DNA of 63,809 nucleotides, counting the filler, from Microthyrium microscopicum (lineage: Eukaryota): the NCBI GenBank assembly GCA_010405405.1. It is 8 parts of 5 records of this genome, joined end to end, with 100 filler letters (N's around TTAATTAATTAA, not from the genome) between each part and the next. Parts side by side here need not be neighbours in the genome. Positions count along the whole stretch, not along the records: positions 10,102 to 22,276 come from MU004245.1; 7 more parts are not named here. One strand, written 5' to 3'. The translations under genes were made by a program, and so were the position numbers. Of the stretch, positions 9,914 to 63,809 are shown piece by piece (position 1 is the stretch's first letter; every line of letters starts with the position of its first letter). The notes beneath the pieces were generated by a model, which had not been told where the DNA came from, made no database searches, and saw only the letters and a program-made list of their open reading frames with translations.

Positions 9914-10809
9914 ATAAATAAAATAGCTAAAAAGCTAGAAATAATAAAGAAAGTAAGAAATCTACTTACTAAATTAACTTATTAGAAAAGTTAAAATATA
10001 ANNNNNNNNNNNNNNNNNNNNNNNNNNNNNNNNNNNNNNNNNNNNTTAATTAATTAANNNNNNNNNNNNNNNNNNNNNNNNNNNNNNNNNNNNNNNNNNN
10101 NTATTATTAGTAAGTTCTATAAGAACTATTATTAAAGCTATAATATTTTATATAATAGTAAAGAAACTATTTACTAAGGTTTATAGAGTATACTTACGTT
10201 ATTTATATACCTTAATCTAAGCCTTCTAACTACTATTATTAAATATTAAATAGGTATAGGAGATTTAATATAGCCTATATACTTACTAAGAAAAGAGTAT
10301 CTAAGATTTAAAAAGTATTAGATAAATATCTTATATAATAAATAATATTTAAATTAAGATATAAGTAAGCTAAAAGATATAGAATTATAAAATAAGATAA
10401 ACTATTAATTTAGAATAGATAGAATTTAATAGAAGTAGATATAAAAGTCCTAAGTAAGATAAGTAAATCTAATATTTAATAAGGTAAATATATAGAGATT
10501 TATAAATTAGCTTAACTTACTACTATAGCTTATAATATAAATATTATAAGTATAACTAAATAATTAATATCTAGATTAGATTAGTATTTAATTTAATAGT
10601 AAGCCTAAAGGAATACGCTACTCTTAATAATATTACCTACTATGTCTAACTTATAATGTATTACTACTAACCTATACTACTTTAAGAACTTCTAAACTTC
10701 TAAACTTCTATTTTAGTAGTAGAAATTATCTTTATTTATAATAGGGTTACTAATATTTAGTAAGGCAGCGCCTTTATATAATACTATAGCTTGCTTAGAA
10801 GGGTCTAGT

Positions 10810-13235: not shown

Positions 13236-13614
13236 ACTTATTATATATATTTATTTTAGTAAAATAAAAAGAATAACTTATAGTTACTTTTTAAAGTACT
13301 ATTTAATAATTACTTAGCTTTAAGGTAGCTAAAACTAGTAGAGATTACTAGTCTAACCTATCTTTATAACCTAGTCTAGTTTTCTAAATATATAAGTATT
13401 AACTAGCTAGGATAGCTATAAAGCTTTTTTATTACTAAGTAGTATTATTTAATACTATGTATTACTTAAGTAAGTAGAGCTTTCTATAATAAAGCTTATT
13501 AAGTAGTATATTTATACTAATACTTAGTAAAATTACTATAAAGGCATCTTAGTAAATCTTAATTAATATTAAGACCCTTTTAAGGCAATAATATTATAAT
13601 AATCTTTATAAATA

Positions 13615-13708
13615 GGGGGAGTAGTACAGTGGTAGTACTTGTAATCTTGTAGTAGGCCCTACCTGTTTGAGAATCCGCAGAGTACGGGTTTAATTCCCGT
13701 CTCCTCCA
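13615..13708 (+). tRNA. tRNA-Ala-like head (pseudo-tRNA, probable intron retained)
   Basis: Acceptor GGGGGAG/CTCCTCC-A with G3.U70 and A73. D arm GTAC-AGTGGTA-GTAC (A box). T arm ACGGG-TTTAATT-CCCGT (RIPed TTCGATT B box). Anticodon region CT-TGT-A (TGC-A before CpA>TpA) followed by ~21 extra nt. The 5' anticodon stem is damaged. Confidence 0.65.
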
Positions 13709-14828
13709 CTACCCTAAAAAGGTAATTGTTACTTGCTTTTAAAGCTACGTTTACCCCTTTTTAGGGAAGGTTATTTTTCCCTTTTTAGTAGGTGTAGAGG
13801 ACGAGCTATAGCTCTTTTTAATACGTCGCGGAAGGTGCAAAAATTTTTGTATTATATGACTGCTATATATAGCTATAAGATCATCCTTATCAAAGCCCTA
13901 CTAACTAACAATGGACTAGCGTTAAAAATTATATGATTGGAAACTAGTTATAGCTATACGGCACGCAAAGCTATATAAAACAAGCTATAACATTGCTAAA
14001 GCGTAGTAAATTTAGTATGCTGAAGCTAATTCTTTTACGGCTCTTAGCAATTAGATCGGAGGAGCGGCCTTGGCTTAGTAAGTCCGAAATCTAGCCGCAA
14101 TTGGTTAAGGCAAAGATCGGACTGAATGACACGGCAGTAAATCACGGGATCCAGGACACTACGGCTTAGTAAGTACGGTGCCCTTAGGTTGGTATAAACA
14201 CGGCGTTATAGGAATAAGCTGGCAGACTTAGGGGAGGTGACCTAGAATACGCCGGGCTAAAGGACTTGGATTTTGGCTCGAAAGCGAAGTACAGCGTAGA
14301 CGGATAGCTTTTAGCAGACCGTTGGCGCTGCTTCGGACTTGGTATTGCGGCACGAATGGAGGGATCTGATATAATAACAAATAAGGAAGGAATCTCGGCC
14401 CCTTGGGGACGATAACATTGGCAACTTTAGGAACTTGAAGCAGTGGACCGAGCGGAAGAACAATAACCCGTAGCGGAACTAGCCTGGAGAAGTGCTAATG
14501 GGCTGAATACTCCTTGGAATTTAGCTCCCTGATCCGCTAAAGCTTCCGCGGCTTAGGGGGCTAATGGAGCTTAGTAGGGTATAATATTAGCCTTAGCATA
14601 AATTGGTATATAGAACATAATAGCGGGGTTTTCTCTTATGTAGTTAGCGCTTTAGTTTGCTAAACATGTAGGGATTAGCTAAAGCCGGACTAGGCCTTAG
14701 GCCTAGAGTGAGCTAGCTTGGCTAGATTTGGGTAGATTGGCTAATTAGATAAGGGTTTTTACCTGCTTATTAAGAGTAGCGTCTGCATAGCCTATTAGCG
14801 TAGCTGAAAAGATAATAAATAAGATTTA
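13615..14828 (+). mobile_element. tRNA-headed SINE-like retroposon, 1214 bp, with 19-bp target-site duplication
   Basis: Starts exactly at G1 of a tRNA-like head and ends in an AT-rich tail. Flanked by identical ATAATAATCTTTATAAATA (13596-13614 and 14829-14847). Absent from the paralogous copy, which has a single ATAATAATCTTTATAACTA at 46232-46250. Much more GC-rich than its flanks. Confidence 0.85.
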
Positions 14829-18654: not shown

Positions 18655-21600
18655 ATAGATTATTTTAAGGTAATCTTTAAGGAATATCTATAATATAAAG
18701 TTATAGTCTATTCTAAATATAGCTATATAGTCCTACTAATATTATTTTCTAGACATATTAAAAAATACTATAAAAGCTTATTACTAACTACTAAGAAGGA
18801 GCTTATTTAGAAACTATAACTTATTATAGGACTTATATAGAATATTAATAAAGTAGTATTTCTAACTAAGACTTATCTACTAATTCTAAGGATTCTAATT
18901 TATTATAATAAATAGAAATATTTAGAGTATAAGTATATATATAAAGGCTAAGTAATTTATATTTAAGAGTATTATTAAATTAAGTATAGCTAGATTAATC
19001 TAAATAAACAAGGCTATTAGATAATTAAAATATAATAAAATATATTAAATTAGTATTATCTATAGAGAAATAATGTTTATTATTAAAAGATCTTTATATA
19101 GCTACCTTAGAACTAAATTATTAAAGTCTATTAACTACTAGACGCCTAGTAAGTAGCTTAGCTATATCCTAAGTATAAAATAATTTAATATTAAGTATTA
19201 GCAACTTAGTAAAGAAAATAAGAAAATTAATATAAGGAATTAATTAATATAGAGAGCATAATAAGCTATCTAGAAGCTAATATATAGATTAAGTATATAA
19301 AATAGGCACGAATCTTATAATTATATAAATAAACGTAGCTAATTAGTTTTATATAACCTATTAACGTTTAAATAGAAGCTAAACTTATAAAAATTAGTAG
19401 ATTAGTCTAATAAGTTATTTAAAATACTATTAAGAATTTATAAAAAAATATTATTAGTTAAATAGCACTTAAAATAATTAATTAAAAGATTTTTAGTAGT
19501 AATAGCAAAAATAGAGCTAGAAAGCTAATACTAGTTTAATAATTAGCTAAAATAATTTAAAGATATAGTAATGTCTAGTTATAAATTATTTAATTTATTT
19601 AGTATATATATAAGGAAGAATAGCTTAAGCTAACTATATCTAATAAAGAAGACTAAAAAAAGTATTAAGACTTTACTAAAGAGGAGAAAGTAAGGTTAGA
19701 CTTTAAGTTAATTAAAAGATAAGATATGCTACTTAAGGATATCTAGAACTTATTAAGTATATTACTAAGTAGAAAAGTAAATAATAATTTAATAGATATA
19801 GAGTTTATAAATAAAAGTAAAGATAAGGGTATAAAAATAAAATTAAAAAAGGAAAGAAAAAAATTAGATAGTTTAGTTTTAGATTTATTTCTAGCTTTAT
19901 TAGATTATAATATTAGTAGTATTACGTATAAGAGTATTTTTATTACTATAATTATAGTTATTAGTTTAGAAAAAGATAGTAGATAGAAAGATCTATTATT
20001 ATTTACTCTATGTTTATTAGCTATTATTATACTTAGGCGTATATTTATATTATATAAAGCTATATATAAGAGAGTAGAAAGAATTGCTAAGTTATTAAAA
20101 AACGAAGAAATATATAAAAAAGATATAAAAGATATAGCTAAGTAGTATTATAAGATTATTAAGTAAATAGCAAAGAGGTTTATAGGATTAGTAGTAGTAA
20201 GATATATTCTAGGTCTAATTAACTATATTTTAAAGATACGTATATATAGATTAAAGATTTAATATAATATAATAAATTAAAAGGTAATTAGCTAGATAGA
20301 TAATAAGTTATTATTTAGTAAGGTACGTTTCTACTCTAATTATAATTTAGAGAATATAATAGCTAAAGTACTAGTAGGTAAGGTATGCTTTAGTATATTA
20401 TAACTTAGTTCTATAGTAGTAAACTTATTAGAAGAGACTAGAGAGTATCTCTATAAAGACTTATTATTATTTATAATAGTTATTAATAATAATACTATTA
20501 AATAGTAGAAATAATATAAATTACTAATAATTCGTTAGAAATATCTAGAAGATAATATATCTAAAATATAGTAAGATTAGAATTTTTTAGTTAATAGAAG
20601 AAATACTTAAGATAATATATTACTTAAAGAAGTTAGAAACTATTAGATTCTAGATAATTAAGTGCTTACTAATTTAAAGATTAATATAAAGTTTTTACGT
20701 ATAATACTAAATAAGAAGGAGATACTTAAAGTATATCTAGATTAAAAGTAAATATTTAAGTACTAAGTAGTAATAAAGAAGATAAAGAAGAAGTTATTAG
20801 TTCTAATCTATATAATAAGTAGCTAGCTAGCTTAAGGTATAGAAATTATTATAATAAAATTTAAAAATAGGCTAGCTAGTTTACGTTAAGGAATTTTTAT
20901 TAAGAATAGCTTAATAGCATTTATTACTAGGTACTATAAAGGTTTTAATTTATTAGTAATCTTAAAGGTAGTTTATTAATATATACTATTAGAAGTTAGT
21001 AAATTATTATATTATTATTTATAGCTTATAAAACCTTTTTAGGTATATATATTAGAAATAGCTAGAGTAGAGATAATAAAGAGTAAGTACTTATAGCTAC
21101 TAGTAAGTAATAAAAAGGAGCATAATATAGATAAGGTAGATATTAATAATTAGGAAGAAAGAGAAAATAAAAATAGCTATATAGCTATAAAATAAGAAAT
21201 ATAAGGATTAAATAATAAAATAGAAGATATAATAGTACTTAAAGAGAATAAAGATAGTAATATAGTAGAGTAGAATAAAAAAGAGAGTATTTAATTATAG
21301 TAAAAAAGTAAGGAATCTATAGAATTTATAAATAAAGAATAGTTATTAATTTAGGTTTAAAAAGTATTAATTTAAGAGATAGAGAAGCATCTAGGTATAT
21401 AAATAATAATATTAATATAGTAATATATATATATTATAATTATACGTAAGTATATTAAAAATAGATTAGTAGAATATATAATTATAAAGTAAGAAAATAG
21501 TTTAGGAATAGAAGAAGTATTAAAAACTAGAGTAGAGGTAAATATAAGTAAATTAGATTTAATAGCTAATAAATAAGCTAGTTATAATACGCGAACATTA

Positions 21601-22276
21601 GTAATAATATATATATATAGCTATAGTAAGGCGTTTAGTATATTATATACTAGGTAAGAGGTATTTAGAAAGGTAAGTACTACTTAGTATAAAGTATTAC
21701 TATTATTATCTACGCTTAAAGAGGAATAATAGTTAGAAAAGAGAAAGATATAAACCTTAGTAAAAGTAAGTATAGAGGATAGTATAATATTATACTAGTT
21801 ATTATTACGTTAAATTAATATAAATATATAGTTAGAAAAGTTAGTAAGTAAAAGTATAAAGTTTTAGAATATTTAAGAGTAAGAAATTAAAGTAGTTATA
21901 TTATAAAAAAGTCTTATTATTATAATTATAAAAATAAAAAGAGACAAAAGTTTATTATTTATATTACTAGCATTATATAAAAGTAGAGGAGTTAAAGGTA
22001 TAACTATTATTATTATTCTATTTATTACTTTAAAGAAAGATATAATAATAAGATATAGAAATTTATAGATTAATACTATAGAGTAAAACCTTAAAGGTTA
22101 ATAAAATTAAGTAAATATTATTTTTATAATACTAGAAGTAGCTATAAAAGAAGCTTTTTTATAGTTTTTAACTAAGTAAAAGTAGATTAGTTAGTTAAAT
22201 AGGATTATATTTAATAAGTATTATATAATATTAAATACTATAGTGCTAAAGAAGTAGAGGAAAAAGATACTAGATT
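18655..22276 (+). pseudogene. Telomere-linked-helicase-type gene: DUF3505/OrsD-like N-terminus + tyrosine-recombinase-like region + RecQ helicase; truncated by gap
   Basis: All checked motifs lie in one frame (de-RIPed): YKVMVCSECGYAV....RH...HH (~18690); IHMTSGQPARGTEI (~20806-20847); WRH..IAI.R (21418); DEQAGH....S..MY (21568-21612); FRGIQ, VMGTGGGKSLLFMLPA (Walker A, ~21925); TVVVIP; RIVFDECH (22201-22224). Confidence 0.85.
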
Positions 22277-22376
22277 NNNNNNNNNNNNNNNNNNNNNNNN
22301 NNNNNNNNNNNNNNNNNNNNTTAATTAATTAANNNNNNNNNNNNNNNNNNNNNNNNNNNNNNNNNNNNNNNNNNNN

Positions 22377-26265: not shown

Positions 26266-26697
26266 GTAACCCTACTACGTATAGGATTTAAACTTATAAC
26301 CTTAACTTTATATAATAGTAGAGTTACGTACTACTATTACGCTAGCGTAGTAAAATTTTAGACTAAATTATAGTACTAAAGTTAAGATAAATTTAGGATT
26401 AGGGTTTATAGTTTTTAAATATATACTACTATATACTACTATTACTAATATTTAGCTACTATCTACCTTAATTTTAGCTCTACCTAAACCCTCTTATCTA
26501 AAATTTATTTAGTAAAAATACGCTAGGGTTAAAATAAACCTAAGAAAATTTTCTAAAAAAATTCCTAGCTATCTACTTTAACTCCTAATACTAATATTTA
26601 GTATCTACTCTTAATACTAAAATCTAATATATACTCCTAGTACCTAGCTCTTATTAGCTTTAACTACTAGTATATATATTTAATATCTACTCCCTAA

Positions 26698-34299: not shown

Positions 34300-37200
34300 T
34301 TATACTATAGTAACTAACTCTATACTTAAGCTAAATAACTTCCCTTTTATTACTATTGCTATTTATTCTTTACTTACTTATAATATAAGATACAAACATA
34401 ATAATAATAATTACTATAAAGAAGGAAATATAGATAATATATAATTTAAGGATAATATACTATATAATAACGTAGTAAATTACGTTAAAAATATAAATAG
34501 ATTATACTTAAGTAGTAGTAATAATAAATTCTTATACTCTACTAAATATATAGACAGCCTAGATATCTCCTTATTCTAATATAGTAACGATAAAGAATCT
34601 TATAGTAATAAGTTGTAGTCTATACTACTAATAGAAATAACTTATATTAATAATATTATAGTAGATGCTCTTAATCCTAACGTTTATATAGCTACTTAAG
34701 ATAATACTTAGTAGAGAGGCATCCTACATTATTAAATAATACTTCATCCTTTACTTAAAGATTATTAGTTTATATTATAAGAAATAGACGACTTTTTATT
34801 CTAATATTATAATTATTTATCTAACTATCCTAATACTAGCTATTTATTAGTTAGTAGTTATTTATTATCTTTATCTACCCTACTAGATTTACTTTCTCTA
34901 GTAGTAGACGTAATTAAGCTAAACTATACTTATTCTTTAAGGTTAATATTTAAAGAGTAGAATAGCTTTATATCCTTATAATTCCTAAATAGTATAATAG
35001 TAAAAAAGAATATAATATAAGCTATTTAAGTACATAAGTCCTATATACTATTAACTAAGAACTAACACAAACTATAATATTTAATATTTTATAATAAGGA
35101 ATAGATACTACGCCTTAGTCTTAAATAATTATAGGTTCTAAACCTAAATAAGATTTATATATATAGAGTCTACGATTAAGATAGTACTATACTTTATCTA
35201 TCTTTACTAGCTATATATAAAGATAGAATTAATATCTTAATGTTTCTTAGGTACTTTAAAACTAATTATATTAAATATAGATATTCTATTTATATTTTTA
35301 ATTAAGAATATAATATTATCTAGCCTATTCTAAACCTATATAAGTATAAGAATATTTATCTTAGAGTTCTTATTTAGGAAGGTAGGTTATTATTAGAATT
35401 TAGTATCTATATTTATTTTCTTAATTTAATATCCTATAGTAGAGAGTAGTATCTTTATATAAAATAACTTAAATAGTAGTACTAATATATCCTATTTCTA
35501 GCTATTAGGGATGTTTGTCTAATTAACGTTCTATAGCATATACTCTTTAATAAATATTATGTATATATAATAGCTATAGTATAATAGGAAACAAGAAACT
35601 AAGATAACCTAAAGCTAGGCCTAGCTAATATATTCTTTATAATTTAAGGTAAATACTTTAAATCTCTATAGGATTATATACTAGACTATAGTAAAAGGTT
35701 CTAAGGCGTAAACTTAAGCTAAAAGGATGCTACTATTAAAAATTCTAAAGATAAATAAGCTAATATTATAACCTATCTATTAGATTAGATAATAAGTTTA
35801 AATATATTTAAGAATTCTATTCTTATACTTATATTACATAATAGCAAACTATTATAGAAAGCTAATAACCTTATCTAAGGATTTAGTAACTACTAAGAGT
35901 ATATAAATTACTATTTTAACTTTTTGTTTATTAGACTATACTATTTATATATTAATCTTATATATAAGGATATATTATTTCGTTAAGATACTTATAGTAA
36001 TAAACTTCCTACTAAGGATATTACACTAGTATTAAAATAAGAATATAGTAAAAATTAGATTTAGTATTATAATAATCTTAATACTAGTAATAAGATTTAA
36101 CCTAAATAGTTTTTATAGTTTCTTACTAATAAGGCAAGTAGTTATAAGTTTTACTATAAGCCTAATAGTCTAATATATAAGGCTAGCCTAGTAAATAGAA
36201 AAGTATATATAATTTATAAAGAAATCTTTAGTACTATTTATAAGAGTCTTATACTATTCTAATATAATTATCTAGAGCAACTTAGTTCGTACTATATAGA
36301 TAATTTTAGACCTACTAGATAATAATATAACTAGATTAAAAAATACTATATATCTAAGTAACCTATATAAATAACTATCTATTAGTTATAGAGGGCTACT
36401 ACTTAAGTATATACTAGCTATTAAGCTAGTAAGAGTAGTACGTTTAGAGTTTATATTAAGCGCTAATTTTAAGTTAATATCCTTTATAATTAGTATAAGT
36501 AATCTATACAAAATAGGAACCTTTAAGAAAATAATAAGAATGCTACATTATATTTTAAGGTAATCTATAGTAATTAAATTTATAATATATATACTTATAT
36601 CTATACTAAATATAGCTTACTAATACTAATCCTAACGTCTTAGAATATTCTCTATATTAGATACTTTTTACGTCTAAAGTTAACTACTTTATTTAGAAAT
36701 CTATAGAAAGATAGCTATAGCTAATTCTTTTTACTACCTAATATTTACTACTACTAATAATTAACTTGTATTATAAATAAGCTACTAATATAGCATAATA
36801 GTAATACTTAGCTACTATAGTTATTTATATTTAAATACTTAAGTTAATTTTTAGTAGTCTAGTTATAAGAGATAGTAGTATATAGCGTAAATATATTACT
36901 ATAGCTTAACTTAATCTTAAAAAATCTAAGATATATTTTTAACTAGGACTTAATAGATATACTATTATAAAACAATATAGAACGATTTAGCTAAAATAAT
37001 TATATTTTATCTAAAGTAATATAATTCTAGTACTATAACCTAAAATTACTTAAGTACTTATAGTCCTTAACTTATTATATCTAGCCTTAACCTTTTAATA
37101 ATTAGTCATTTAGTCCTAGGCTCTTTATTTATTACATACTACTTATTAGTATAAAAAAGAAACTAAGATTAAGATTACTCTTATCTAAGCTACTTTTCTA

Positions 37201-44456: not shown

Positions 44457-44929
44457 ATAAATCTAAATATAATTAGATTAAATATACCTAAATATAACTA
44501 GATAATCTAAATATTAATAAACCTAATCTTTCTAATAACTCTTAAACTAATATTATAAAAGACTATAAAATAATCTTAATTAATAATAATAATACTAGTA
44601 AAGTAGATAACTCTAATAATAATAATAAATAATATATACTATAAAAACTATAATTAATCTAAAAATATTATATAAACTAAAACTATAAGCTACTTTCTCT
44701 ATATATAGATTCTATAATAATCTAAAAATAAATAGATAACTCTATTAAAAAAGAGTTAGATATAAATAAATTAATTAGAAATAAAACTAATATACCTATA
44801 TATATAATAGGACATCTATAGCTATAATANNNNNNNNNNNNNNNNNNNNNNNNNNNNNNNNNNNNNNNNNNNNTTAATTAATTAANNNNNNNNNNNNNNN
44901 NNNNNNNNNNNNNNNNNNNNNNNNNNNNN

Positions 44930-47102: not shown

Positions 47103-47202
47103 NNNNNNNNNNNNNNNNNNNNNNNNNNNNNNNNNNNNNNNNNNNNTTAATTAATTAANNNNNNNNNNNNNNNNNNNNNNNNNNNNNNNNNNNNNNNNNN
47201 NN

Positions 47203-55380: not shown

Positions 55381-58003
55381 ATAAGCCTAACCTAGTTTCT
55401 ATAATTATAAGTTTACTTTATATTATATACTAATTAATCTACTTACTATCTATCTAGAACGTAGTAAAAACTATAGCCTTAGAAAAATATATAAATTTTA
55501 GGGTTATAGTTTCTATATAGCCTTTTATTTATAAGATATTTATATAATATTTTAGGGTTATAGTTTCTATAGGGCTCTTTGTCTTACTTTATAGTACTAA
55601 TTATAATAGAAGTATTAGCTAACTTATAAGTAGTTTATAATTAACTTTTATAACTAGTAAGATTATAATACTTATAATAAGTATTAGGATAATACCTATA
55701 CTTATATTATTAGTTTAAGTTTTAATAAAGAAAAAGAGGATAATTAATTTAATATTACGTATATTAACTCTATACTTCTCTACCTATAGGATGTTACTAC
55801 TATAGGTAATTAATTTAAGAACTTTTAGTTACCTACTACTAATAAAGAGTAACTATTAACAAATTATATAGAAATAGTTAAAATTTTTTATTATAGTTAT
55901 ATTATAGGGTTTAGGCATTAAGGCTTTATTAGTAAGTAATATATTATAAGTACTAATAGTACTACTCTATATAGTCTAATATAAGAGGTAATTTAGGATT
56001 TAGCTTAGTATAATCTATATAAGGGTAGTAGCGTTTTTCTTTTATTAACTAGTATAAATAAGTATATACCTTTATTAACTAAGCTAATATAGGTAGTAGA
56101 GTATATTACTAATTATTTAAATAAGATATAAGCTATTATAGTAATAGTTTATAAAGCTATAACTAAAGGTTAGAGCTAATAGTTAGATACTAATAAAGTT
56201 AAGAGTACTACTAAAGAAGAGTAAANNNNNNNNNNNNNNNNNNNNNNNNNNNNNNNNNNNNNNNNNNNNTTAATTAATTAANNNNNNNNNNNNNNNNNNN
56301 NNNNNNNNNNNNNNNNNNNNNNNNNATAAATTAAGTATAAGAAACTATTTAATAATTAACTTAGCCTTATTCTTATATAGAATAAACTTATCTATATTAA
56401 ATAGTTCTATTTTATTATTATTAAAGTTATATAAAAGACGTTTACTATCTAACTAACTATAATTAATTAATATATTATAAATAAGGAAGATTTAATATAA
56501 TTTAAACTAAGCTTAAGTCTTATTAATATATATAATACTATTATTATATATTTACTTTATATTAGGCTAAGAAGGTTTAAATTTACTATTATAATTATAC
56601 TTAGAAGCCTTTTCTTTCTTCTTAGTTTAAGTAGTATTCTTTTTAATTTCCTTAAATTTAGAAAGCTCTAAAGAAAAGTAGCTAGAACTTAATAATTTAA
56701 TATAGTTATTATTAGTATTAATTTAGGTACTATTAATAAATTTAACTTTATTAGTTACTTTTTTAATAGTATTAATATTAATAGAATTAGCTAGTTTTAT
56801 AATATTAGTAATTAGAGTTTTTAGTAAAGTAATAGTATCTTTAAAAACCTTAAAGATATTCTTAGAAACTTTAAAAGTATTAGATAGAAATAGACTAAAT
56901 TTATTTAAAGCTTTATTAACTCTTACTTTATTTTTTATAGTAGCTATTAAAGAGAATAGGTATAAAAAAATATAAAGTATACTAAGTAAATTTATAAAAA
57001 AGCTACTAGTAAAATATTAAAACTACTAGCTAAGACTTATTCTTATACTATAGCTCTATTTATAAAAATTAGCTTTATTTAGTTAGTTAGGATTTACTTA
57101 GGTATATACTTTAATTCTATAAAAGTAAAATAAAAAAGAATTAAAAAAAGTATATAATTATAAGATTAAATATACTTTATTTAATATCCTTTTACCTAAT
57201 TAAGTTAATAGAGAATAAATACTTACTTTATTAAGTACTTCTTATTAAGGAAAGCTTTAATATTAATCCTTACTATAAGTAAAGATTCTAAAGAGAAAAG
57301 TTATTCTTAAGGAGTAATAACTTATAGATTAAGTAAGTTTAAGGTAATAGCCTAAGGAAACTTAAAAATACTTAAGTTCTTAATAAACTTAGATAAACCT
57401 AAATAGGTACCTAATAGTAATATTTAGCTTTATAAATTATTATTTAAGAAGTATTTCTTTAAGTAACGTTTAAAACTAATAATAAGTTTACTAAGATTTA
57501 TTAAGATTATTATTTAGCTAGCTAGATAGTAGCTAAGTAATTTATACTATTATAATATAATATACTCTAAAGTATATTAGTACTATTAGAATATAGTTAA
57601 CTCTTTAAAGATTTATAAGAATATTTAAGTTCTTATTAGAGAAATAATATTAGGAATTAAATCTAATAAACTTTTTAAGATAAGTATTATAGCCTAAGTA
57701 CTTTAGCTTAATAGCTATTAGAAGCTAGTAAAGCTATTTCTTTAGCTTTAGTATATTTTATAATTAAGAAAATTAATAGGTTTTTAACTATTATAATTAG
57801 TAGCTAAGTATACCTTTAAGGTATTTTAGCTTATAGATAAACTACTTTAGCTTAAAGAGGAACCTTAAAAGTTCCTAAGTAATAAAATAGAGGCTAAGGA
57901 ATCTTCTTATAGTTTTTTAGTAATTATTCCTATTCCTATTTCTATATACTTAATCTATTTAAGTATCTTATAACTTTCTTACCTATTCTATAACTCTAAT
58001 CTT

Positions 58004-58115: not shown

Positions 58116-58215
58116 NNNNNNNNNNNNNNNNNNNNNNNNNNNNNNNNNNNNNNNNNNNNTTAATTAATTAANNNNNNNNNNNNNNNNNNNNNNNNNNNNN
58201 NNNNNNNNNNNNNNN

Positions 58216-61772: not shown

Positions 61773-63809
61773 NNNNNNNNNNNNNNNNNNNNNNNNNNNN
61801 NNNNNNNNNNNNNNNNTTAATTAATTAANNNNNNNNNNNNNNNNNNNNNNNNNNNNNNNNNNNNNNNNNNNNGCTTCTTTAAGTAAATCTTAAAGTCTAT
61901 TATTAATACTATTTATATTTAGTATATTAGATAAAGAAGATTTATTTACTACTTAGAGTAGCTAGAGTAATGCCTAAAGAGATATAAACTAAGTTTTCTT
62001 ATTATAACTTTATAAGGAAGCTACTAATTACTTAGTTAATTAAAAAGATTAGTTATTTATAGCTAGTTAGCTTATTATTCTAAATATTTTTAAGATAATC
62101 TACTTTTAAGTTCTATTAGTAGTAATAACGTCTAGTATAGATATTTCTTTACTTCTACTAAGTATTATAATTTCTATAGAAAATAACTAGTTTTACTTAG
62201 AGATTAAAGTTAATTTCTTTTAAGAAGAGAAAACGTTAATAATACTATTTCTAATACTTATAGCTAATATATTTTTTACTATAGAAAGATCTATTTTACT
62301 ATTACTTAAAAGATAAAAGTTTAAAAAAATTTAATTAAGTATTTATTAGTATAGAGTATTATCTATAAAGAGTATAATTCTTAGAAGTAATATAATACTA
62401 TTATAAAGAATAGAATAAAGTATTTTTATAATTAACTTATTAATAACTATAAAATACTCTAGGTCTATTATAATTTATTATTTATTATTAGCTATAACTA
62501 TAAGTATACTTTTTAATAGTATATTTTAAGCTAGCTTTAAAAAGATCTAATAATTTTTAAAGTAAATTAAGTATAAATAAGCTAAAGTATACCTAACCTA
62601 AATATAATTATAAGTTTATAACTTTATAATATTTAAGAGTATAATTTTAACTTATCTTACTATAGTATAAAGCTATACTTAATCTAGTACTTTAAATAAT
62701 CTTTCTTCTTACGTATATTATTTTAGTAAAGATTTAGTCTTATTATCTTTTAGTATGCTTATTAAAAGCTTTAATAGAAATTTAAGGCCTATTACTAAAA
62801 GTTTATAAAAGGTTTTATTACTAAGCTTTAGACTTAATAGTTATATTAGGTAGAATATAAAGCTTAAGAAAAAAAAGGAAGATAAAGCTATATAATTTAA
62901 CTATACTTTATAGAATAAATTAATAGCCTTTAAAGCTATAAGCTAAATACTAAGTAAGCTAGAATTTATAATATTCTTTAGTATAACTATTAAGATCTTA
63001 CTAATTTATAAAATATAAGGTATAGATATTAGAATATTCTTACTATATAAACTACTTTCTAAAGATTAGAATATCTTATTAAGGTATTAAAGTACTATAG
63101 TATAAAGCTTTTTTAAGTCTAGTCTAGTTAGTATGCTTTTCTTCTTTAAATTAAGTAAGAAAGTAAGTAAAATTATAAGCTATATACCTAGTTCTAGTAT
63201 AATATCTTTCTTTTATATAGTATTTAGGAGTAGAGATATATATTTAAAGGTAAGTTCTTATACTTTAAAAAAGACCTTTTCTAGTTATTAAAGCATACTA
63301 GATAATAAAAAGAAGATATAATTAGCTAGCTTCTTATTTAGTACTTTAAAAACTAAAAAATATTTAAGGATCTTTAAGAGATTTAATAACTTAAGAACTA
63401 TAGTAGTAAAGTCTTTATTACTATCTATAGAAGTAAGAGTAGCCTAGCTTAAAGTAATATATAGTAGTTTTAGTTTTTAGAAAGCTTTATTTTAGGTGTC
63501 TATTTCTAATTATTATAAAACTTCTTTTAGAAATATTAAATTCTAAATATATTAAGAAGTTACTAATATTATATTTAAAAAGTATATTAATAAAAGTTTA
63601 AAGGCTAATTTATAAACTATATATTATACTATAGTAGCTTAAGTATTTCTTTATAGTTCTTATTTTTATACTTTATATAATAAGACTTTAATTTTATTCT
63701 TTTTTTAAACTTATTTAAGAGATTTATATATCTAAATTTAATACTAGAGATTTAAGAAATAGGTAGAAAAGAAAAGCTTAGAGTTTTAGAAGAGACTCTA
63801 TAAGGGTAA

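Follow-up and report, generated by a model that had tools for sequence, protein, structure and literature searches.

The stretch of Microthyrium microscopicum DNA that we analysed (hereafter the window; 63,809 nucleotides, filler included, from assembly GCA_010405405.1) carries a gene of the fungal telomere-linked RecQ helicase (TLH) family that RIP has killed and that now encodes nothing, and structure models of intact relatives of this gene support a tyrosine-recombinase fold for the protein segment known as the TLH domain. The family itself is the already known TLH family, and the new part is the domain assignment only. Tests of the fold and of its residues were run on intact relatives and not on the dead copy.

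A degraded TLH gene in Microthyrium microscopicum

As the original prediction of a single reading frame would have it, the plus-strand frame from position 18655 is homologous to one protein family, with no frameshift found by phmmer or tblastn. We obtained 576 relatives of the frame with phmmer at E <= 0.001; the best of them, P0002 (E 8.7e-86), aligned in one stretch with frame residues 296-1189, and tblastn against the window placed its residues 88-887 in a single segment at 19795-22275. Nine intact relatives searched against the window by tblastn hit no locus other than this one, and self-comparison gave no second copy inside the window, the only matches being three of 64-75 bases at low identity.

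The mark of RIP on this copy is heavy, with extreme indices (TpA/ApT 1.52; (CpA+TpG)/(ApC+GpT) 0.08) and a GC content of 18.7%, and the RIP shows the gene to have been repeated in its genome at one time. When we compared codons by eye, nearly all differences between the motifs of the pseudogene and those of its relatives were C-to-T or G-to-A changes, one exception being that the DECH block starts with F, where it starts with I in the relatives. The motifs quoted in the original prediction (G-Q-P-A-R-G-T-E, W-R-H, Q-A-G-H, Walker A and DECH) amount to a mental reversal of these changes, since none of them is readable in the window as written. Both catalytic Arg codons of the pseudogene are now stops and the catalytic His has become Tyr, while the codon of the putative nucleophile Tyr is retained (Table 1). 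Pfam searches of the read-through translation of the window matched no family at E <= 10, because RIP has wiped out the signal. The N-terminus had been described as DUF3505-like, and it is indeed collinear with the OrsD region of the relatives, with Cys changed to Tyr, but alone it scores only 0.2 bits (residues 4-63); its OrsD identity therefore derives from the architecture of the family.

The frame stops at 22276, inside the helicase, because contigs are joined there by a scaffold linker, and everything beyond helicase motif II is consequently missing from the pseudogene, whose helicase part is reduced to motifs I, Ia and II, all degraded. There is no telomere repeat near the pseudogene; the sole near-match in the window, at 26393, lies past the contig join.

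Table 1. Features of the degraded TLH gene, in positions of the window; asterisks within motifs are stops
Feature	Position	Strand	Basis or remark
Degraded TLH-family RecQ helicase pseudogene, 3'-truncated	18655..22276	+	Single frame, 118 in-frame stops in 1207 codons
Remnant of OrsD/DUF3505-type N-terminal zinc finger, Cys and His positions now Tyr	18655..18850	+	Collinear with relatives
Remnant of conserved helical region 5' of catalytic domain	19225..20544	+	Residues 191-315, E 9.8e-06; P0002 aligned from residue 296
Remnant of 'TLH domain', the predicted tyrosine-recombinase-fold catalytic domain	20545..21732	+	TLH-domain family profile matches frame residues 631-1026, E 2.4e-33; fold from relatives
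First-Arg motif, family G-Q-P-A-R-G-T-E, here *-L-A-*-G-I-E	20824..20844	+	Arg codon now TAA
Beta-hairpin segment with invariant Lys (R-Y-Y-K-G-F), Lys kept	20929..20985	+	Family alignment
Same beta-hairpin segment, family K-x-x-H-R-Y, here L-K-V-V-Y-*-Y-I, Arg now stop	20929..20985	+	
Second-Arg motif, family W-R-H-x-x-I-A-I-x-R-R-Y, here *-*-Y-I-Y-I-I-I-I-R-K-Y	21418..21453	+	
His...Tyr motif, family x-Q-A-G-H-x8-Y, here K-*-A-S-Y-N-T-R-T-L-V-I-I-Y-I-Y	21571..21618	+	
Helicase Walker A remnant, family M-x-T-G-G-G-K-S, here I-K-I-K-R-D-K-S	21928..21951	+	
Helicase motif II remnant, family I-D-E-C-H, here F-N-K-Y-Y	22210..22224	+	
Scaffold linker N44-TTAATTAATTAA-N44, marks contig end	22277..22376	.	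Sequence

Intact relatives and the TLH family

Intact relatives of the frame begin with an OrsD zinc finger, continue through about 800 unannotated residues and then enter a RecQ-type helicase. Among 15 relatives scanned with Pfam, DEAD was found in all 15, Helicase_C in 14 and OrsD (PF12013) in 10, with RecQ_Zn_bind present below the cut-off in one; in none of the 15 did a Pfam family match the 600-800 residues between OrsD and the helicase. The helicase motifs are conserved in the relatives alongside the TLH domain. The recombinase-like domain and the RecQ-type helicase are thus fused in frame in living genes, as had been proposed from the decayed copy, and the order in living members is an OrsD-type zinc finger, a helical region, the catalytic domain with the modelled tyrosine-recombinase fold, a RecQ-type helicase and a Cys-rich tail. 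In the protein atlas, the clusters of these relatives are mostly ascomycete; the atlas also pointed weakly (score 0.86) to a bacterial cluster with PF00589 in 17% of its members, a link that we did not count as evidence.

In the portions of the TLH literature that were covered, the proteins have N-terminal C2H2/OrsD zinc fingers and an approximately 250-residue 'TLH domain' directly upstream of the RecQ helicase, the domain being treated as a motif of no assigned function. The genes, described there from Magnaporthe, Ustilago, Metarhizium, fission yeast, Fusarium and Botrytis (fungi, together with a choanoflagellate), are multi-copy, are often the last gene before the telomere and form arrays. 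Our relatives match this description in architecture, copy number and arrays and, at seven of 79 loci, in a position next to telomere repeats, the match to named TLH proteins being one of architecture and context and not of direct alignment. The pseudogene copy differs from the published genes in being RIP-dead and truncated and in ending at a contig join with no telomere repeat nearby. Within this literature, whose coverage excludes the 2009 paper that defined the domain and the supplements of the Botrytis preprint, we found no study that connects the TLH domain with a recombinase or a topoisomerase.

Predicted fold of the TLH domain

Comparisons at the level of sequence gave no significant link to recombinases. 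No Pfam recombinase family, Phage_integrase (PF00589) and DUF3435 included, was matched by six domain-sized relatives at E <= 10, nor was any matched by 12 members at E <= 1, and phmmer of the relatives against the PDB had no match at E <= 10. Alignment with hhalign was non-significant both against XerD alone (E 0.35) and against 13 E. coli K-12 recombinases (E 0.46), the latter set being used instead of XerD homologues, for which the search returned only near-identical XerD (88-99% identity) unfit for a broad profile. Because no Pfam recombinase family was matched, the label of a distinct lineage is fair.

The structural comparisons point to one fold class. An AlphaFold2 model of the TLH domain of the relative P0143 (pLDDT 88.8, pTM 0.86) was aligned with VIA-align to 48,161 chains, of which the archaeal recombinase XerA was the best (Z 11.1, rmsd 3.1, 146 aligned residues), followed by Xer-type recombinases and Cre with Z of 9.6, 9.5, 9.2, 8.7 and 8.5. 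Ranks 1-31 are all tyrosine recombinases, type IB topoisomerases, Ndc10, QRICH1 or a protelomerase, and the first unrelated row scores Z 3.6. With Foldseek against the PDB, the same model had six matches at E <= 0.001 (best 5.5e-4), and tyrosine recombinases made up all 42 of the 42 matches listed. The combined AlphaFold and Foldseek check suggested for intact homologues thus assigns a tyrosine-recombinase catalytic fold to the modelled region between zinc finger and helicase.

A longer model of 579 residues (pTM 0.82) again had XerA as its VIA-align top match (Z 10.8), and 229-244 of its residues align to the two-domain, DNA-bound structures of XerH, Cre and IntI (rmsd 5.5-8.5, Z 7.8-9.8). 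In this model the upstream helical region lies packed onto the catalytic domain, and part of it aligns with the N-terminal domains of recombinases: residues 7-144 fall within the XerH, Cre and IntI alignments, and taken alone they match generic helical bundles only. Foldseek returned nothing for the longer model at E <= 0.001, its best match having an E of 0.67, with recombinases or topoisomerase IB in all six of the top six rows.

Conserved residues of the putative active site

Motifs and residues were counted over the best 150 of the 576 relatives, using all 147 that matched the domain profile, which had been seeded with motif-picked sequences. Five columns are conserved in this alignment: R82 in 136/137 sequences, K117 in 140/140, R204 in 129/129, H235 in 125/127 and Y244 in 125/127. 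Among the rows spanning all five columns, R-K-R-H-Y is complete in 114 of 117; these rows are representatives that differ from one another by more than 50%. The beta-hairpin Lys had been overlooked in the original prediction, which expected R, H, R, H and Y to be invariant in homologues; of these, both Arg, the last His and the Tyr are near-invariant, whereas the His of HxxR is found in only 2/129 sequences, the position three residues before the second Arg being otherwise S, A or Q. The reading of W-R-H-x-x-I-A-I-x-R as HxxR was therefore wrong in detail, and in the XerD alignment and in the model it is the Arg of W-R-H that falls on the second catalytic Arg. The His that follows this Arg is kept in 78/129 and the trailing Arg of the motif in 111/127. 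The putative nucleophile Tyr stands nine residues past the His of Q-A-G-H. Intact homologues came through both refuting tests of the original prediction, the one on the fold and the one on residue conservation.

In the model, R82 lies after a long helix, K117 in the loop between two long strands and R204 at the opening of a helix, while H235 and Y244 flank a short helix; judged from these secondary-structure positions, the five residues would cluster in space. A permissive hhalign run, whose score is non-significant, pairs the R, R, H and Y of the family with the R, R, H and Y of XerD. In the modelled fold, R-K-R-H-Y stands where tyrosine recombinases and type IB topoisomerases have their active site, and catalysis by the TLH domain is likely.

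Comparison with known enzymes

The best structural matches of the TLH domain are the Xer-type recombinases (archaeal XerA, XerD and XerH) and Cre, in which R, K, R, H and Y occur in the same order on the same structural elements, and with which the longer model gives a clamp-like two-domain alignment. The TLH family differs from them in lacking detectable sequence similarity and the His of HxxR, in the long acidic insert that separates the hairpin from the second Arg in many members (motif spacing 153-350 residues), and in its fusion to a helicase, with an extra conserved region of about 300 residues upstream. Type IB topoisomerases of poxviruses, bacteria and the nucleus belong to the same catalytic fold class and score below Xer (Z 5.3-8.2); the N-terminal domain specific to topoisomerases was not seen in the TLH family.

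Yeast Ndc10 and the QRICH1/DUF3504 proteins are eukaryotic chromosomal proteins of the same fold that bind special chromosome regions, and they have lost the catalytic residues that the TLH family keeps. The telomere resolvase ResT of Borrelia and the protelomerases are recombinase-like enzymes that act at chromosome ends. Fungal telomeres are not hairpins, and we set a protelomerase-like function aside, the VIA-align match to TelA being weak (Z 3.8). ResT is described, in the parts of the literature covered, as having an ATP-dependent unwinding activity.

Cryptons, Starship captains (DUF3435) and DIRS/Ngaro elements likewise place a recombinase-fold enzyme in a repeated, strain-variable fungal unit. 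Cryptons consist of a single large ORF without evident terminal inverted repeats, and so does the TLH unit. The TLH family differs from all of these in matching neither DUF3435 nor any other Pfam recombinase family, and in its helicase, no such fusion having been found described for those elements in the portions of the literature covered.

Genomic context

Terminal TTAGGG repeats lie downstream of the gene in seven of 79 metagenome loci (six of them distinct), with the same orientation in all seven, and of the seven loci with at least 8 kb downstream, six have no telomere repeats. Two or more copies are present in 9/79 loci; at one locus (L058) the second copy is interrupted inside the domain by telomere repeats, and at another (L040) the gene contains an in-frame stop. 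The sequence common to four contexts spans 4.6-5.4 kb, equal to the ORF and a few hundred further bases, with boundaries that vary by pair. No common sharp ends, terminal repeats or target duplications were evident in pairwise and boundary alignments of L040, L041, L044, L080 and L059. As no defined ends or target sites were found, the role given to the protein in the original prediction, that of mobility enzyme of a YR-type DNA element, continues to be inferred. Ordinary homologous recombination is able to produce tandem arrays and to spread copies among chromosome ends. According to the sections of published work covered, Botrytis shows presence/absence variation, one strain having 14 TLH copies and two further strains lacking them, and TLH genes are induced in telomere crisis, a TLH fragment aiding recovery in fission yeast.

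Interpretation and alternatives

The explanation that we prefer, and consider probable as a whole, is that the window holds a dead TLH copy, that the TLH domain has the tyrosine-recombinase fold, that it would carry out cleavage chemistry and, as a speculative further step, that this would help the gene to spread. The domain would be a working DNA breaking-and-rejoining enzyme, putatively forming a covalent 3'-phosphotyrosine, and the fused helicase may unwind or branch-migrate the DNA on which the domain acts. Most speculatively, the paired activities might recombine the gene unit of about 5 kb into and between chromosome ends, and TLH genes would then be selfish, Y'-like subtelomeric elements and not plain helicase genes. 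That TLH genes go further and act as mobile elements of chromosome ends, autonomous and made of a single gene, strikes us as doubtful. Such elements would use the recombinase domain to insert a unit of about 5 kb, circular or linear, into telomere-repeat tracts and the fused RecQ helicase to open the G-rich duplex, which would explain the fixed telomere-ward orientation, the units flanked by telomere repeats, the head-to-tail arrays and the strain-specific presence.

It is possible, if rather unlikely, that an active domain works for the host, as a topoisomerase-IB-like or junction-resolving module relaxing or resolving RecQ-unwound DNA in recombination-based telomere repair, comparable to RecQ-Top3 or reverse gyrase. 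R-K-R-H-Y without the His of HxxR is the pattern of topoisomerase IB, and it is the pattern of the TLH family; topoisomerase IB chains are also among the matches to the models, with Z of 6.7-8.2, yet Xer-type recombinases outscore them (Z 10.8-11.1). The conservation of the helicase motifs alongside the domain favours a host role, as do, in the published accounts as covered, the induction of TLH genes in telomere crisis and the help given to recovery by the fission-yeast fragment. The same accounts describe a dispensable gene whose presence and copy number vary between strains, and this, together with the free decay seen in our pseudogene and at L040, is more in keeping with a selfish element than with a maintenance factor. 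Improbable in our view is a recombinase-derived fold kept for DNA binding only and performing no chemistry, in the manner of yeast Ndc10 or the Crypton-derived DUF3504 proteins: Ndc10 and QRICH1 do occur among the structural matches (Z 5.2-5.6), the His of HxxR has been lost and no activity of the TLH domain was found in the covered parts of the TLH literature, but the remaining five catalytic positions, the putative nucleophile Tyr included, are kept in 114/117 sequences, and a pure binding domain would not need them. There is very little chance that the resemblance is accidental or an artefact of modelling and the TLH domain an unrelated mixed alpha/beta domain. Every sequence-based comparison was non-significant, the Foldseek E values are modest (5.5e-4 with the model of the domain, 0.67 with that of 579 residues), and best VIA-align Z of 7-8 are common for models without true matches; against this, the Z of 11.1 is well above that background, the 31 straight top rows belong to one fold class before the drop to 3.6, two independent models and two aligners agree, and the invariant residues sit where the fold predicts them.

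Implications

For annotation, the pseudogene illustrates that AT-rich RIP 'deserts' are still readable when stops are read through and profile methods are applied. Many fungi, among them model yeasts and crop pathogens, have TLH genes at their chromosome ends, and these genes have been studied for more than twenty years as helicases with an unexplained extra domain. Should this domain prove to be a functional cutting-and-joining enzyme, as we think likely, it would become testable why TLH genes become numerous at telomeres, appear and disappear from strain to strain and respond to telomere failure. The family would then join Cryptons, DIRS-like elements and Starship captains as a fourth eukaryotic tyrosine-recombinase lineage, the first with a fused helicase. 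Should the more doubtful reading of TLH genes as autonomous mobile elements also be true, they would parallel telomere-targeting retroelements at the level of DNA and might serve as a model of how the yeast Y' element originated.

A RIP-degraded helicase gene

The plus-strand frame beginning at window position 18655 is a genuine gene relic, and the window holds a dead gene from the TLH (telomere-linked RecQ helicase) family. In a phmmer search of 1.84 billion representative proteins, its read-through translation matched 576 proteins with E <= 0.001 (187 of them with E <= 1e-10, 7 with E <= 1e-30), the top match (E 8.7e-86) being unbroken over query residues 296-1189. When intact relatives were searched back on the window by tblastn, a single locus was matched in one frame, which a profile of the central domain also detected. 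RIP indices are extreme over the whole feature (TpA/ApT 1.52; (CpA+TpG)/(ApC+GpT) 0.08; GC 18.7%), and the frame stops at its distal end solely because the contig ends there. The original prediction was right that this frame and its homology are real, but the motifs that it quoted (G-Q-P-A-R-G-T-E, W-R-H-x-x-I-A-I-x-R and Q-A-G-H-x8-Y) are merely implied: with 118 stop codons in 1207 codons, no ordinary ORF and no Pfam family found in the read-through translation, these strings are absent as written, and correspond to what the frame would read with RIP-type changes undone. At the catalytic positions occupied in relatives by Arg, Arg and His, the window copy has stop, stop and Tyr; its Walker A reads I-K-I-K-R-D-K-S, and its DECH box reads F-N-K-Y-Y.

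The coding strand of the pseudogene is set apart from the rest of the window by a strong excess of G over C (GC skew 0.33-0.60; 478 G vs 201 C), which may reflect either RIP that was heavier on one strand or an originally purine-rich coding strand. Two weak matches, one of them from the zinc-finger end of the pseudogene, lead to a site on another contig 18 kb off, which could represent a fragment of a further RIPped copy, or mere low-complexity AT-rich similarity. G+C is about 20% across the whole 63.8 kb. The window consists of separate contigs strung together by linkers with stops in all six frames, so neighbourhood across linkers carries no meaning; the remaining N runs (10-387 bases) are ordinary gaps. 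An island of normal composition in AT-rich surroundings resembles a single-copy gene lying between repeats and spared by RIP, and contains a tRNA gene that, to judge by its length, probably bears an intron.

Features in the window, on metagenome contigs and in the TLH domain (P0143, a relative found by phmmer, supplies the residue numbering)
Feature	Sequence	Position	Strand	Detail
TLH pseudogene	window	18655-22276	+	
Central-domain profile match	window	20545-21732		residues 631-1026, E 2.4e-33
GC-skewed segment	window	19001-22000		
Match, zinc-finger end	window	18661-18724 / 36551-36617		69 bases, 81% identity
Further weak match	window	20183-20253 / 36561-36634	opposite	
Normal-composition island	window	13600-14800		~1.2 kb, 40-50% GC, RIP product index 0.78
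tRNA gene	window	13615-13708	+	94 bases
N44-TTAATTAATTAA-N44 linkers	window	10002-10101, 22277-22376, 44830-44929, 47103-47202, 56226-56325, 58116-58215, 61773-61872		n=7, identical
Capped second TLH copy	L058	8119-10766		tandem
Four-copy array	L093	601-20900	same	spacings 9.4, 4.4, 5.6 kb
End of similarity	L040	12800-12860		A-rich stretch
Arg, in G-x-P-A-R-x-x-E	P0143	82		136/137
Glu	P0143	85		138/138
Lys, in Y-H-K-G	P0143	117		140/140
Lys	P0143	126		130/141
Arg	P0143	130		139/141
Arg, in W/Y-R-H	P0143	204		129/129
His, in Q-A-G-H	P0143	235		125/127
Tyr	P0143	244		125/127

Family architecture and predicted fold

The in-frame fusion with a RecQ helicase was borne out in the 15 relatives scanned with Pfam (DEAD in all 15, Helicase_C in 14), while the proposed DUF3505-like N-terminus, the OrsD zinc finger, was found in 10; no Pfam family was assigned in any of the 15 to the 600-800 residues between OrsD and helicase. 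This architecture is the same as that of published telomere-linked RecQ helicases, for which a Fusarium preprint (10.1101/2024.02.27.582403) and a Botrytis preprint (10.1101/2022.03.07.483234) describe two C2H2 motifs, a 'TLH domain' of about 250 residues immediately upstream of the helicase and RecQ motifs, and give the function of the TLH domain as undetermined. The nearest protein-atlas clusters are mostly from Ascomycota.

In living relatives, structure prediction gives the TLH domain a tyrosine-recombinase fold with conserved R-K-R-H-Y, fused to the RecQ helicase, which partly supports the integrase-helicase fusion originally proposed. The first model, of the natural 287-residue fragment P0143 spanning the domain, was built with an alignment of 88 sequences (pLDDT 88.8, pTM 0.86). 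With Foldseek, 6 PDB matches reached E <= 0.001, and all 42 rows listed were tyrosine recombinases (XerA, XerH, XerD, Cre, lambda and Tn1549 integrases, and Flp). VIA-align, which is independent of Foldseek, ranked archaeal XerA top among 48,161 chains (Z 11.1, rmsd 3.1, 146 residues), with XerA again, XerD, a mycobacteriophage integrase, XerH and Cre as runners-up (Z 9.6-8.5). Ranks 1-31 consisted exclusively of recombinases, type IB topoisomerases, Ndc10, QRICH1, recombinase-like phage regulators and protelomerase, and the best unrelated row had Z 3.6. A second model, of a 579-residue fragment, took in the conserved upstream region as well (pLDDT 86.5, pTM 0.82). XerA was again top (Z 10.8 over 175 residues), and the model aligned over 229-244 residues with two-domain DNA-bound XerH, Cre and IntI, a hint that the upstream helices stand in for the core-binding domain. 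Foldseek found no significant match for this second model (best E 0.67), its top six non-significant rows being recombinases or topoisomerase IB.

Conserved residues and sequence-level comparisons

Residues were counted with the domain profile over the best 150 of the 576 phmmer matches, as representatives of 50%-identity clusters, of which 147 matched. The full R-K-R-H-Y was present in 114 of the 117 rows covering all five columns, with the change in the other three confined to His or Tyr. In the P0143 model, Arg82 follows a long helix, Lys117 lies in the loop joining two long strands, Arg204 opens a helix, and a short helix lies between His235 and Tyr244, which are nine residues apart; judged from their place in the secondary structure, these residues are predicted to sit at recombinase active-site positions. 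For the catalytic R/H/R/H/Y originally claimed, R, R, H and Y are near-invariant, but the HxxR His is absent. The string W-R-H-x-x-I-A-I-x-R had been misread as HxxR: the conserved second Arg is the one preceding the His, and that His is kept in 78/129 and the trailing Arg in 111/127. Since the HxxR-His position holds S, A or Q (His in just 2/129), the kept set is the pentad that type IB topoisomerases also carry.

No recombinase family was found by Pfam at E <= 10 in six domain-sized relatives or at E <= 1 in twelve family members, and phmmer against all PDB chains gave no match at E <= 10. By hhalign, a profile built from 13 E. coli recombinases (E 0.46) and E. coli XerD against the full-length family profile (E 0.35) were non-significant. 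A permissive run, with an equally non-significant score, pairs the conserved residues with the first Arg, second Arg, His and Tyr of XerD. With every sequence-only comparison silent, the recombinase link rests on predicted structure and residue conservation. The E 0.35 match joins the N-terminal core-binding helices of XerD to a conserved family block some 300 residues upstream of the catalytic domain (T-x-x-x-Y-x-x-x-W ... R-P-x-Y-x-L-T-x-x-Q; columns 554-606 of A1, the full-length family alignment). This block may be a further relic of the N-terminal domain of a recombinase, or the pairing may be due to chance.

Genomic behaviour of relatives

A metagenome-contig scan yielded 79 loci, of which seven end in (TTAGGG)n (six distinct, L070 and L072 being the same place). 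The repeats lie downstream on the gene's sense strand in all seven, 1.6-7.5 kb past the last similarity except at L058, where a tandem second copy breaks off within the recombinase-like domain and TTAGGG repeats cap it directly, the pattern that telomerase healing of a chromosome break would give. Of the 7 loci having at least 8 kb of downstream sequence, 6 lacked telomere repeats, so some copies are not terminal. At least two copies occur at nine of the 79 loci; the four domain copies of L093, within 20 kb, include truncated units because the 4.4 kb spacing is shorter than the full gene. Among the related contigs of one group, copies placed in four distinct contexts have just 4.6-5.4 kb in common, comprising the ORF and about 50-500 bases on each side, with boundaries that vary between pairs, no evident terminal repeats and an in-frame stop in one copy. 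At L040, similarity to other copies starts about 115 bases ahead of the start codon and stops no more than about 20 bases from the stop codon. Such tight limits would fit a compact element or a transcript-derived copy. The preprints report presence/absence among Botrytis strains, with 14 copies vs none (10.1101/2022.03.07.483234), and Fusarium units with telomere repeats at both flanks (10.1101/2024.02.27.582403).

Possible role of the domain

The TLH domain likely cleaves DNA and rejoins it by way of a phosphotyrosine link. The purpose of this chemistry is uncertain; we prefer the reading in which the gene unit would propagate itself among chromosome ends, given how copy number behaves, that the gene is dispensable, that copies decay and form arrays, and that their orientation is fixed. 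Ordinary homologous recombination can yield most of the genomic patterns of TLH copies, and self-propagation has a serious competitor in a host function in recombination-based telomere repair. The TLH family was already known, and the recombinase-fold assignment of its domain appears to be new: no literature linking the domain to recombinases or topoisomerases was found in a search whose coverage excluded the domain-defining 2009 paper and bioRxiv supplements. The finding is of fairly high interest for the TLH family, and of low interest for the dead copy in the window.
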